Of a DNA stretch of 64,000 bases, positions 48,001 through 57,000 are shown one piece after another. The stretch lies in assembly GCF_055900595.2 (NCBI RefSeq), contig NZ_CM148325.1; one strand, given 5' to 3'. Every line of letters begins with the position of its first letter. Within the stretch, counting starts at the first letter, position 1. Position numbers: made by a program.

Positions 48001-51000
48001 TGATACTTGTCGTGTACAGAGTGCCATGACAGCCTGACGTTTGACTTCTGGTTCAAAGGGCGCAACCGGGTTGGCCTTACTGGTAAATATACGTCGTCTG
48101 TCGGGATAAAGTTCATTAACCCAGCGAGCGAGTACATCAGTGCAGGGATAACCCAGGGCTCTGCTGGTAAACGCCAGGCAGCAGCCGTGGTTAAGATAAT
48201 GTTCAACGGCAACCTGTTTTTGCTCATCGGAGTAACGGTGCTTATGACGAATGGATTCTTTTGCGCCACCACCTGCTTCCCATGAGCGGATCCAACGCCG
48301 CAGATTTCTTTTCGAAGGGTAGCCCAGTTCGCGTACGACGGGAGCCAGCTTCTTACCATATTTGAAATAAAGCTCAATGGCGCGGATTTTTTCTTCTTCA
48401 GTAAACATGTTTTATCTCCTGAGAGTCCAGGAAATCGTCCGCATCCCCCAACGAGCTGCTGTTTAAATTCGGGAGGATAATTAGGGCAGCCTTTTCGCCT
48501 GCCGGGAGTCACATTTTTCTGCATATCTGACACTTTGGTTCCCACTACTTATTTGGTGGACACCACTTTGTCTAATTCGTCAGATTCTGACCAGACGGTT
48601 CAGGCTGTACGCTTACAGTTGTTCAGGAGTAATAGTCCAAAGTATCGGGAATTTTCCAGACAATCCTGATAATACGCTTATGAACATTACAACACGCTCA
48701 TGCGGAACCTGGATGGGGGAAGGAACGGTGAAGCTGTTAGCGAATGACTGGCGTTTGTATAAACGCCGGTCATGATGAATGATATTTCAGAATATACCTC
48801 GGGCTAAAATACCGGGACAGAGATCAGGCATGATTAATCTGCAGCATTTTTAATAACAGAAGTACTGAGCTTACTTTACCTTTGATGATGGAATAGTTAT
48901 TTCCGTCGGTACTCATTTTTCCCTGAAATAATGTCACGGATGTTTCTTCCTGCTGATCCTGCAGGCGCAGTCGTAAGGTCATATTTTTAATGAGCTGAGA
49001 TCCGGGTGGCAAGGGGTATTTGCTGTCAGATACTGGGCGACTGAGTCTGATGTGGCGCGTATACAGCCCGTTTTCGTACAGGGTGGCCTCTGTTATGGTG
49101 TCAGTGACCAGCATGTGGGAGACAATGCTGTATTCTTTTTTAAAGCACCCACCAGAAACGGTGATTGTAATGATAATGGTCTTCTCGATCGAGATGTAAA
49201 TACCCGTTTCGTTATACTGTCCGTATCGGAACCATGAGAACTCAGTTTGAGGTGTACTGGCAATAGCGGACACAACCATTTGTTCTTTTTTTAAGCAGCT
49301 ATCTGATGATATTTTTCCCTGAAGGCTGCCGGGGAGATATTCCCCAGACGAGAGTGACGACGCTGACGATTGTAGAAAATCTCAATGTATTCCCGTATTA
49401 CTGAGATGGCTTCATCCCGGTTATTAAAACGATAGTGGCTCAGGCTCTCATTTTTCAGCGTTCCCCAGAAGCTTTCCATCGGAGCGTTGTCGTAACAGTT
49501 ACCTTTACGCGACATTGATGTTTTCAGACCAAACTGCTCCTGTATGACCCGGTAATCGTATGCGCAGTACTGTGAACCTCGATCAGAGTGGTGGATTAGC
49601 CCGGCAGGTGGGCGCTGGCTCCTGAGCGCCATAAACAGGGCTTTACCTGTCAGCTCTTTTGTCATGCGCTCTCCCATGGCGTAGCCGACAATTTCGCACG
49701 TATAAACATCTTTGATGCCAGCGAGGTACAACCATCCCTCCTGTGTGGCAACATACGTCAGGTCCGCCACCCAGACCTGATTTGGTGCTGTAGGAGCGAA
49801 CGTCTGGTTCAGCAGATTTGGCGCAACTGGCAGATTGTGGTTCGAGTTCGTAGTCGCTCTGAACTTGCGTTTCTGCTTACAGCGTAGCCTTAGCTCCTTA
49901 CGAAGACGTGCCAGTCGGTCACGACCAACGATGATGCCATTCTCTGCCAGCTCCGTCTGGAGCCGCCGGGTTCCATATGTTTCGCGAGTGCGGATATGTG
50001 CCACCTTAATCTCCAGTTTTAGCCGCTCATCACTTTGTTTTCTGTCTGAGGGTTCATGCTGTACCCAGTTGTAATAACCGCTCCTGGATACACCAAATAC
50101 CTGACACATCGCTTCAATGGGAAATTGTTGTCGCCATTGTTCGATTAACGCGTATTTTTCAGCGACTCCTGTGCAAAATACGCGGTTGTAGATTCAATCT
50201 GTCAATGCAACACCCCTTTCAATTATCTCTTTCGGTGTTTTGAACTTCAGTGTCTTTCTCGGTCTGTTGTTTAGCTGAGCAGCAACCAGATCTAGTTCAT
50301 GTTGAGTATATTGGGCAAGACATGTCTTTTTAGGAAAGTACTGCCGAATTAGCCCATTTGTGTTCTCATTTGTTCCCCGCTGCCAAGGACTCTGAGGATC
50401 GCAGAAGTAAACTTTAACGCCGGTGCTGACAGTAAATTCTAGATGTCTGGCCAGTTCCATTCCTCTGTCCCATGTCAGTGATTTTCTGAGTTCTGACGGT
50501 AAACTCAGGAATTTGTCGGTAAGAGCCTGATTTACTGAGACAGAATCTTTGCCCCTGAGTCTAAGGATGATCGTATAACGTGATTTTCGGTCTACAAGTG
50601 TGTAACCGGCTCATTTAAACCGTCTGGTCTGTTTCCTCCGGCTCTACAAAAATAATGTCCATCATTTTTAATGGACACTATCGTATGAAACACCGGACCT
50701 GGATCACTGAAGCTTTACGTCTTCACTTTGAAGAACATTTACCCCGGGTTGTGGCCGGGCGTCGCCTGGGTGTACCAAAATCAACAGTTTGTAGTATGTT
50801 CGTGCGCTTTCGGAGAGCTGGCCTTTCGTGGCCTTTGCCCGCAGGCATGTCGGAGCAGGAACTTGATGCCTGCCTTTACGGACAATTTTCCACGGTACCA
50901 GTCGTACGTCCTGAAAGCACCGTTATATCCGAAGCCCCCGTGGTAAAAAAACGTCCCCGGCGGCCCAACTTCCCTTATGAGTTTAAAATCGCCTTAGTGG

Positions 51001-54000: not shown

Positions 54001-57000
54001 TCCATAGTTCAAAAACAGAGGCTTTTTCCTCTGCTGTAAATGTTCGTCTCATTCAAAAAACCTCCGCAACCCCATGTTTTCACATAACTGTTGCGTTGAC
54101 CAATTGAATCTACAGTTGCTTTTTTTAATATATCTCGCTCAAGGCGAGCTTCATTTAACGCCTTACGCAGTTGCAGAATTTCAGATTCCAGTTCAGCCAC
54201 CGTGCGGGAACCAGGAGTACCGAGCCCTTTTCTGGCGGCGGTAACCCATTGTCCTAAAGTGCCTTCAGGAAGAGATAATCGGGAAGCGCCTTCACTGATC
54301 GAAAGTTGATTTTCAAGAACCGTTCTGACAGCTTCGGCTTTGAACTCTTTAGAGTAACGTTGGGTTTTTCTGCTCATTATTAGCTCCTTCTGATGCCATT
54401 CTATTTCAGGAAGGAGTGTCCGTTAAACTCAGGCTACCTCAGTTGCATTCCAGCCATGATCCAGAATATGTGCATTTTTTTGCCTGATAGTTTCTTTTTT
54501 TATTCGCTCATGTTTAAGGCATAACAGGCAGATAAATAATGTCAGAAAAAGAAAGCTAATAATGAGAGCAAGAGCGATATAGTCTGTCACAGGGTAATAC
54601 ATATTCTCTCCGGTAGAAGAAGGGCCGCAAACGCGGCCCGGGCTGTTATCAGAAAGAGTAACGGAAGTTGGCGTTGATCGCGTTATCCACGTTGTATTTA
54701 CCAAATGCCGATTTCTCAAACTCAAGACCGAAGCGAAGATTATCGCGAATTTCAGCGTTGAGACCAACATTCATGAGCATACGACCGTCTTTTTCACCTT
54801 TGATACGTTTCTCACCGGACGCATCACGCAGTACGGTTTCACCGTTGGCAAACAGGTCAAACTGGTAGCCAAGGCCGGCGCGGGCTGTGACTTTCCAGTC
54901 CTTACCCGAGAAGGATTTACCCACATCAACACCGGTACGCCCAATCAGCGGATTAAAGTCCTTATCCTTCATGGTGAGGTTCATTCCCTGGTCCTTCCAG
55001 GAGAACTGTTTCCCGGATACAGCACCGTAAACAAGTTCCGCCTGCGGCTCAATCCATGCAGAGTCAGTTACATGGTAACGGTAACCGACTTCCGCACCGG
55101 CATACCAGGAGTGGGAGCTGTAGTCTCTGGTGCCAAGGCCGGCGAAAGTTGCGGTATACTCGTTGTCATGGTGAACGTACTTACCGATGAGGTCGATATA
55201 TGCTCCGGACTCAAACATGGCAGAGGCATAGAGACCGGCACCCACAGACTTCGTTTCACCACTGAAGGCATCACTGCCTGCATGGCTGTCGGTATAGGTC
55301 ATGGTCACCCCGGTGAAGAGGTCAAGGCCATCGAGTTCATGTTTGTTATCCGCACCGACCTGAACGTGGGTGTAGTTGTCACTGAATCCACCGCCGGCAG
55401 ACCCGGTTCCGCTCATGATTCGGGCCCATGCACCGGACTCACCGTTAATGTCACGCAGATCACCCATACGTTTGTTAAGGTTGTTGACCTCAGCAAGGAA
55501 GGCTTTATAGCCGCCTGACATCAGTAATGTTGCCTTTTTAGCCGCATCGGCGTTGGCCACAGATTTATAGCCGATCAGAGTCCATGTTGCTTTGTCTGTA
55601 TCGTTCTTTTGCTCGATAACCGGTGTTACATCACTGAAGCCAATACTCCGAGTCGTAGCTTTAAAGACATCTACTGCAGTTCCTTTTGGTGCGCTGACCA
55701 GATCGATATTCAGTCCGTTGCTGTTTCCATTTTTCTCAATGAAGTCGACTAACAGAAGGTTGTTTTTACCAGACAACGATTTATTGACAACAAGCTGATC
55801 TGCTTGGGCCAGATTTGCACGCAGCACAAATGCACTGTCATCTATAGTAAGGTTGTCCACTGTAAGGGTTGTAAACTTCCCATTATCACCAGTAAAACGC
55901 ACCATACTGTCTTTTGTTTCTAGACGATTAATTGATGACTGGCTATTTAGATGCCAGATCGCATTATTCATGCTAACTGTAGCTTTGGGGGCTGTTATTG
56001 CGCCTCGATAGGCGGTATCAAAGCCATACAAAAGAGTCTCTGCCCATGCCTGATAAGCAGACGATATAGTCGGTGTTTCAGTTTCAGGCTGTCCCAGAGT
56101 AATGGTTGCTGCATCATCAGCATAAATATTTCCGGTGACAGATGCCATATTTCTGGCAATGAAATTTGCATTTCCACCACTCAGCCTGAATCCATCAGCA
56201 GCGTAGTGGAGACCCGGCGTTACAGTTTTACTATTCTGTTCAGGGATTCCCATCATAGTCAGCTCACCGGAGATATCAATACCTTTTGTTGTGAACATGG
56301 AATTTTGTGCTATAACTTTTGCTCCTTTATCTATACTTATAGGAGTATTATTCAGAAAGGTTGCACCATTAAGTGTAACTACAGCTTGATCACCTATGGC
56401 TATTTGGCTGTTATGTGCAGTGATGCCACCTGTAAATTTAGTTTCTCCTATGGATAGATTAGTACTGATAGTTTGTTTGAAGTCAAAACCATTATTAGTA
56501 ATATTTTTCCCTGCAAGATTATCAATGTAAGCATTTTTATCGCCGATTGTGATAGCTGATTTATTTGCTGATATATTTCCTTCAACATTGGCATTGCGTG
56601 ATATTGAAAAGTCAGCATTGTTCAGGTGTAATGTATCAAATTTAAACACCCCGGTTTTCCAGTCTGGCTGATCAAATGAGGTCTGCTGATTATTACTTTT
56701 GTGATCAGAATTGAACTTTTTATTATATGAACTCTCTGTTTCTTTCAAAACGGTGACCCAGTCCGTTCCACAAAGAAATACCAGGGAGCAATGATTCGCT
56801 GTGCTTCTGAATATTGCATGCTCTGTTGCATGGCCTTGCATGGTAAGACTGGCATTACTGACTTCAACATCATTTTTTGTGTTGACACTACCATCCAGAA
56901 TTAATTTTGCATTAGTTTTCTTATCCTGAGAATTAATATTGTGCGTTAGTTTTATATTGCCATTTATGTTCCCATGATATATGTAGGAGTCTTCGTTATT

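Follow-up and report, generated by a model that had tools for sequence, protein, structure and literature searches.

How do three insertion sequences (ISs) of different families come to lie one inside another within a single small gene, and in which order did they arrive? We addressed this question at a locus in a 64,000-nucleotide stretch of contig NZ_CM148325.1 (NCBI RefSeq assembly GCF_055900595.2), which we call the window and whose positions are counted from its first letter. Here, a complete copy of ISCro1 (IS66 family) lies within IS30, this IS30 lies within IS600 (IS3 family), and IS600 in turn interrupts a small hypothetical gene downstream of the autotransporter gene sat. The stack very probably arose by three successive transpositions into this gene, the second of them at an apparent hot spot for IS30. 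The elements and the mechanism are known and the structure is an ordinary one, IS nesting being common in pathogenicity islands; what is mildly novel is only that IS30 seems to have a hot spot in the frameshift windows of IS3-family elements.

Anatomy of the nest

The open reading frames (ORFs) between positions 48800 and 55000 of the window were listed, and each layer was excised in silico together with one copy of its duplication; intact ORFs were regained at every level. ISCro1 is bounded by the termini GTAACCGGCTC and GTAAGCGACTC and is flanked on both sides by ACAAGTGT, an 8-bp identity that chance would produce at two given positions approximately once in 65,536 cases. The stop codon of its tnpA overlaps the start of tnpB. 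Removal of ISCro1 with one duplication copy leaves an IS30 (50187-50601 joined to 53309-54114) of exactly 1221 bp, which encodes an uninterrupted 383-aa transposase, has ends that match each other at 23 of 26 positions and is flanked by a duplicated GT. Removal of IS30 in turn leaves an IS600 (49248-50186 joined to 54117-54441) of exactly 1264 bp with the ends TGAGGT...ACCTCA and a duplicated GTT, in which orfA (100 aa) ends in an A7G slippery run and orfB encodes 272 aa. Finally, excision of IS600 restores a 193-aa ORF on the minus strand, the host gene, which forms a fourth layer. Three levels of insertion are thus backed by exact element lengths (2699, 1221 and 1264 bp) and by family-typical duplications (8, 2 and 3 bp), and the locus can serve as a worked example of how insertion order is read. 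The features are listed in Table 1.

The original prediction, made from the sequence of the window before any database search, had placed an IS66 element inside IS30 inside an IS3-family element, and this nesting order is correct. The inner boundaries, duplications and lengths that it gave (2699 and 1221 bp; 8 and 2 bp) proved exact on in silico excision, and the IS3-family orfA that it described as cut by IS30 does run from 54377 to a break at 54117 and continue from 50186, with GT duplicated. Its outer ends, 49281 and 54452, needed correction: the inverted repeats and the GTT duplication set the true ends of IS600 at 49248 and 54441, so that the two were off by 33 and 11 bp. The host gene and the recurrent, site-specific nature of the insertion of IS30 into IS600 had escaped it.

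Table 1. Layers of the nest and the adjoining genes, with positions in the 64-kb window
Feature	Position	Strand	Remark
Interrupted 193-aa hypothetical gene, 3' part	48824-49244	-	One ORF restored once the whole nest is excised
GTT target-site duplication of IS600, copy 1	49245-49247		Flanks in JE86-ST05 overlap by exactly these 3 bp
IS600, right part	49248-50186	-	Right inverted repeat and orfB (49291-50109, 272 aa, rve integrase core)
GT target-site duplication of IS30, copy 1	50185-50186		IS600 nucleotides (nt) 326-327, AC in IS600 orientation
IS30, right part	50187-50601	-	Right inverted repeat and 3' part of transposase gene; IS30 nt 807-1221
ACAAGTGT target-site duplication of ISCro1, copy 1	50594-50601
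Complete ISCro1 (IS66 family)	50602-53300	+	2699 bp; inverted repeats start GTAA
ISCro1 tnpA	50655-51332	+	225 aa
ISCro1 tnpB	51332-51679	+	115 aa
ISCro1 tnpC	51699-53270	+	523 aa
ACAAGTGT target-site duplication of ISCro1, copy 2	53301-53308
IS30, left part	53309-54114	-	Left inverted repeat and 5' part of transposase gene, start codon 54052; IS30 nt 1-806
GT target-site duplication of IS30, copy 2	54115-54116
IS600, left part	54117-54441	-	Left inverted repeat and orfA (start 54377), cut 6 nt past the A7G frameshift run
GTT target-site duplication of IS600, copy 2	54442-54444
Interrupted hypothetical gene, 5' part	54445-54602	-	47 bp downstream of the sat stop codon
sat, autotransporter gene	54649-58548	-	1299 aa; named from annotated database matches

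In the interrupted IS600, the orfA frame runs on into the left end of IS30 and forms a 122-aa OrfA fusion ORF (54009-54377, minus strand). It is a matter of speculation that this truncated OrfA, if expressed, could still act on other IS600 copies.

Identities of the three elements and of the host gene

The region was compared by megablast with 5,426 complete Escherichia coli genomes, and the RefSeq annotation of the matches was used to name the elements; all counts of genomes below refer to this set. Near-identical copies are named IS600 (IS3 family), IS30 and ISCro1 (IS66 family). The ISCro1 copy agrees over its full length with the annotated copies in JE86-ST05 and 2013C-3252 at 2698 of 2699 bases (99.96%), and the sole difference falls at base 51202, in tnpA. 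Its TnpB is identical to WP_000624622.1 and its TnpC to WP_000381395.1, which is annotated as an 'IS66-like element ISCro1 family transposase'. The reconstructed IS30 is 99.8-100% identical to annotated IS30 copies, the right part of IS600 is 99.6-99.8% identical to annotated intact copies, and IS600 as a whole is 99.6-99.7% identical to the intact copies in N32, AST198 and 2013C-3252; intact IS600 copies carry the RefSeq annotation 'programmed frameshift'. Aligning the split halves to reference copies was the check that the original prediction had proposed, and in intact copies of both elements the halves are contiguous. Furthermore, IS600 and IS30 rejoined around each other (2487 bp, hereafter the composite, IS600::IS30) occur unbroken at 100% identity in other E. 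coli, and 996 genomes hold at least 80% of this sequence in one place.

The Pfam matches agree with these names. The ISCro1 ORFs matched HTH_Tnp_1, TnpB_IS66 (E 4.7e-40) and DDE_Tnp_IS66 (E 2.5e-103), the last together with zf-IS66, LZ_Tnp_IS66 and DDE_Tnp_IS66_C; the IS30 transposase matched HTH_38 and rve; and IS600 matched HTH_Tnp_1, rve and HTH_21. ISCro1, IS30 and IS600 each show the defining features of their families, and the assignments to the IS66, IS30 and IS3 families made from the sequence alone are upheld by both lines of annotation. The host gene is found uninterrupted as WP_000291745.1 in JE86-ST05, where it adjoins sat, and no Pfam family was matched by its 193-aa product.

States of the sat locus among E. 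coli genomes

The setting is a pheV-type pathogenicity island (kps-ag43-iha-sat-iutA/iuc), and the window is collinear, at 99.2-99.9% identity, with the Nissle 1917 island that carries kps, ag43, iha, sat and iutA/iuc. The site is empty in 171 of the 5,426 genomes. Most of these have 99.5-99.6% flank identity, which indicates a slightly diverged lineage of the island. JE86-ST05 has the 193-aa gene annotated as intact, and its two flanks share just the GTT. The composite with a sat-locus flank is present at 100% identity in 451 genomes, including the sequence type (ST) 131 strain EC958 and ABU 83972, and the host gene is disrupted in every strain that bears the composite at this locus. Nothing suggests that the nest, which lies downstream of sat, has an effect on sat.

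The three-level nest with ISCro1 was found in none of the 5,426 genomes. A 400-bp probe for the IS30/ISCro1 junction had no match among them, and a 38-mer across this junction was not found in metagenome contigs or in species-representative genomes. In addition, Ec55, S65EC, ABU 83972 and others share with the window essentially identical sequence over 22.6 kb left of ISCro1, and all of them lack ISCro1. The entry of ISCro1 is thus very recent and private to the lineage of the window, because near-identical 22.6-kb flanks occur without ISCro1 and the junction is absent elsewhere. The entries of IS600 and IS30 are ancestral to an island haplotype now carried by hundreds of strains. The claim of the original prediction that the transpositions were 'relatively recent' therefore stands for the ISCro1 step and fails for IS600::IS30 (100% identity, 451 genomes); likewise, its suggestion to look for the nested configuration in related genomes was borne out for the outer two levels, and the full nest was seen in none of them.

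The IS30/ISCro1 junction can be used as a unique marker of the strain lineage of the window, being absent from the complete genomes. The composite has also received other third-level additions: in YL03, a different IS3-family element lies within it, and in TUM1857 an extra IS1 lies in or beside it. The ladder of states (empty site, IS600::IS30, then ISCro1, ISEc52 or another IS3-family element) could help to type the sat/iha/iuc island of ST73, ST131 and related strains.

The state of this locus differs between two assemblies of Nissle 1917. The older one (NZ_CP007799.1, 3363088-3364191, 5.44 Mb) has an empty site at 100% identity, and the newer one (NZ_CP022686.1) has IS600::IS30::ISEc52; the older assembly probably collapsed the IS elements, and a few of the 171 empty-site genomes may be assembly artefacts as well.

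One candidate for an IS600-only intermediate at the sat locus, N32 (NZ_CM165895.1), was rejected on account of its chimeric IS600, a deletion and mismatched flanks. Its IS600 equals the sat-locus copy over nt 1-327 only and has five differences thereafter, the flanks are GTG and GTT, and approximately 45 kb are gone (window 4585-49247, with ag43, iha and a nan-like cluster). The N32 IS600 links sat directly to a kps-proximal IS110 fragment, and the switch in sequence type falls at the IS30 insertion point. The N32 locus is a product of recombination or deletion.

Recurrent insertion of IS30 at one site in IS3-family elements

The site of IS30 in IS600 is an imperfect palindrome (..AAAAAAAGCA/AC/AGCGTATTTT.., 7 of 12 positions symmetric about the 2-bp centre), and IS30 is known to favour near-palindromic hot spots and to attack them 2 bp apart (PMC9333248). 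Of the 996 genomes that bear the composite, no more than about half carry it next to sat. In the forward orientation it is found at four loci at least, each time with a 3-bp duplication of its own; besides sat, these are a prophage exonuclease gene (GCG), a STY4851-family gene near yjiS (AGG) and the interval between an epimerase gene and wzzB (GAC). Furthermore, IS30 in reversed orientation occurs at the identical IS600 dinucleotide in 588 genomes by probe, with the copy in FORC_069 verified fully and those on the O157:H7 chromosome and a plasmid in part. Together, between 996 and ~1,580 of the genomes have IS30 in this site.

At the exonuclease locus, both states before and after insertion are preserved. 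The insertion site is identical in AST198, which carries IS600 alone, and in BS74R-D, which carries the composite; GCG is duplicated in both strains, and they agree at 700/700 bases on either side. At this locus, IS30 therefore inserted into an IS600 that was already in place. Another strain considered as the IS600-only precursor of the composite at this prophage locus, 2013C-3252, was rejected: its IS600 lies in the same gene, but 195 bp from the site of the composite.

The use of the site is not confined to IS600. Three more IS30 copies (strains 167, LD27-1 and FAM21845) lie in IS911-like and another IS3-family element with 2-bp duplications, where they occupy the counterpart of IS600 nt 326-327 and adjoin ATATTAAAAAA(A)G. 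It has been reported that the resident IS30 copies of K-12 interrupt IS911 (PMC9333248, PMC5379014). IS30 has thus repeatedly targeted the position 6 nt 3' of the IS600 slippery run. To judge from the genomes compared, this position behaves as a natural hot spot, because IS30 recurs there in either orientation and because three IS3-family elements have been hit at equivalent points. This recurrent targeting therefore also accounts for why the two-level nest IS600::IS30 is so common. In broader terms, we consider it likely, with less assurance than for the history of the sat locus, that the IS3-family frameshift window ATATTAAAAAA(A)GCN/NN/NGCG is a major natural hot spot of IS30 in E. coli, at which IS30, inserted either way round, would repeatedly and site-specifically disable IS600, IS911-like elements and their relatives. 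If this is true, much of the genomic distribution of IS30 would reflect one IS preying on another family. Repeated attack on this window suggests a sequence-specific interference between IS families, which is of modest interest for transposon biology. A literature search for IS30 in IS600 or for a nest near sat returned nothing relevant.

Two observations concern the borders of IS30 at such sites. First, at window position 50184 (IS600 nt 328), which adjoins the IS30 duplication, the sat-locus composite has a plus-strand G, read as C in IS600 orientation; N32 and the four composites examined at other loci, three of them forward and one reverse, have T there (A in IS600 orientation). Among these copies, the substitution is private to the sat-locus composite and directly adjoins the point where IS30 inserted. 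Second, the IS30 of strain 167 has flanks from different IS3-family elements (GT versus AC), which suggests recombination between two IS30 copies.

Proposed history of the nest and its alternatives

We infer the following order of events. In a first step, IS600 would have entered the hypothetical gene and produced the 3-bp GTT duplication. In a second step, IS30 would have entered this IS600 at nt 326-327, 6 nt past the A7G run, and produced the 2-bp duplication usual for IS30; the frameshift site would thereby have been parted from orfB, so that no fused OrfAB could be made and this IS600 copy, judged by the integrity of its ORFs, would be dead. In a third step, confined to the lineage of the window, ISCro1 would have entered the IS30 transposase gene at IS30 nt 807-814 and produced the 8-bp duplication. 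By the same reasoning from ORF integrity, this would have killed IS30, and only ISCro1, with three ORFs and both ends intact, could still move. The anatomy, the identities, the distribution among genomes and the reuse of one IS30 site are direct observations; the direction of each event, the loss of activity and the entry of IS30 at this very locus are inferred.

Three points weigh against this history. A clean IS600-only allele at the sat locus, which the entry of IS30 in place would have passed through, was found in none of the 5,426 genomes. The third level is seen in one sequence only and rests on its perfect 8-bp duplication. Finally, gene conversion among IS600 copies could also spread the IS30 insert.

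The first of these points bears on the strongest alternative, namely that IS600::IS30 was made elsewhere and moved into the sat-adjacent gene as a 2487-bp unit, by means of the IS600 ends and transposase from another IS600 copy. In that order, IS30 would have entered IS600, the pair would have entered the gene, and ISCro1 would have followed. Arrival as a unit fits not only the missing IS600-only allele but also the finding that near-identical composites, each between perfect 3-bp duplications, occupy at least four loci; composites from two of these loci agree at all variable positions except one single-base gap. Single-nucleotide polymorphism patterns among composites at different loci do not separate transposition of the unit from independent hits on the hot spot. 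However, the composite is predicted to be unable to make OrfAB, and IS3-family transposases are generally held to prefer action in cis. The IS600-only and composite alleles at the exonuclease locus, moreover, show entry in place, and the presence of IS30 in both orientations and at equivalent sites in other IS3-family elements means that independent hits are enough for the pattern. We therefore regard arrival as a unit as unlikely, and successive entry of IS600 and IS30 at the sat locus, as in the chronology of the original prediction, as the better explanation.

Far less probable is that the third level was acquired from an IS30 elsewhere that already bore ISCro1, through homologous recombination or gene conversion. 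IS copies in this region do recombine, as the chimeric IS600 of N32 with its 45-kb deletion and the mixed flanks in strain 167 illustrate, but the IS30/ISCro1 junction that a donor would carry is absent from the complete genomes and from both large contig collections, and no second IS30 or ISCro1 copy lies within the window; the perfect 8-bp duplication also speaks against such an origin. The least credible explanation is that the nest is an assembly artefact of mis-joined IS copies; IS-rich regions are often mis-assembled and the two Nissle 1917 assemblies conflict at this very locus, but mis-joins would not give family-typical perfect duplications at three levels together with exact element lengths, and the outer two levels recur in 451 independent complete genomes.

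Comparison with known nests

The closest relative of the nest is IS600::IS30::ISEc52 in Nissle 1917, which shares the host gene, the IS600 and IS30 copies and their duplications, with 100% identical flanks. It differs in its third element, ISEc52 (IS3 family, 1248 bp), which lies at a point corresponding to window ~50250, at the 3' end of the IS30 transposase gene, and it lacks ISCro1.

A nest of the same families in the same order, IS600 > IS30 > ISEc8, is present in O157:H7 strain TR01 (NZ_CP033605.1, 1326101-1330083, adjoining traT) and uses the same IS600 dinucleotide. In contrast to the nest at sat, its IS30 is reversed, and ISEc8, which is 68-78% identical to ISCro1, lies at IS30 nt 350-358 rather than at nt 807-814, with an 8-9-bp overlap at nt 350-358; moreover, its IS30 is truncated beyond nt 594 and its IS600 lacks the left part. 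The TR01 nest is an independent event. Matches of O26 and O103 strains to the reversed-IS30 probe show annotation patterns like that of TR01, which suggests that this type of nest is widespread in enterohaemorrhagic E. coli.

In K-12, IS30 within IS911 (IS30A at 5.8-6.1 min and the IS30 of the KpLE2 region) is likewise an IS30 within an IS3-family element (PMC9333248, PMC5379014). It differs in its host element and in having no third level, and in the searched portions of these papers it is treated as an annotation fact and not as a hot spot. In the IS911-like copies that we examined, IS30 closely follows the A-rich frameshift run on its 3' side and is flanked by duplicated 2-bp targets, as it is in IS600. 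Annotations of 'IS600 partial' or 'IS911 partial' beside IS30 should therefore be read with caution, as they are usually the two halves of a single interrupted element.

The lambda LHS site (Olasz et al., 1998, as cited in PMC9333248) is, as far as that citing text describes it, similar to the IS600 site in its near-palindromic target, the 2-bp attack and duplication and the repeated use of the site. The two sequences bear only a loose resemblance (AAAA...GCG on one side), with an uncertain lambda coordinate, and we did not use it as evidence. The IS600 site is not among the hot spots named in the searched text of PMC9333248.

Other features of the island

In 28Eco12 (NZ_CP038505.1, 924827-950912), ISCro1 lies inside the corresponding 22.6-kb island segment at a position other than the IS30 site; ISCro1 is therefore active in island-bearing relatives of the window. 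The immediate surroundings of the nest are an IS graveyard: at window ~46900-48500, the annotation of the collinear Nissle 1917 and EC958 sequences shows an IS3-family pseudogene with an internal stop codon, a fragment of an L-lactate permease gene and fragments of transposase genes.

Downstream of ag43, the window has an intact 840-aa ORF (12527-15049, minus strand). Nissle 1917 lacks 1415 bp of this ORF (window 13657-15071) and has a truncated pseudogene annotated there. We considered this 1415-bp difference as another IS and rejected it, as it is a deletion in Nissle 1917 inside an ORF that is intact here. At window ~26400-29500 lies a second, distinct IS66-family element that is 68-73% identical to ISCro1. 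Its Nissle 1917 counterpart is annotated with tnpA, tnpB and a partial tnpC followed by a full tnpC, and this region may be another nested or duplicated IS.

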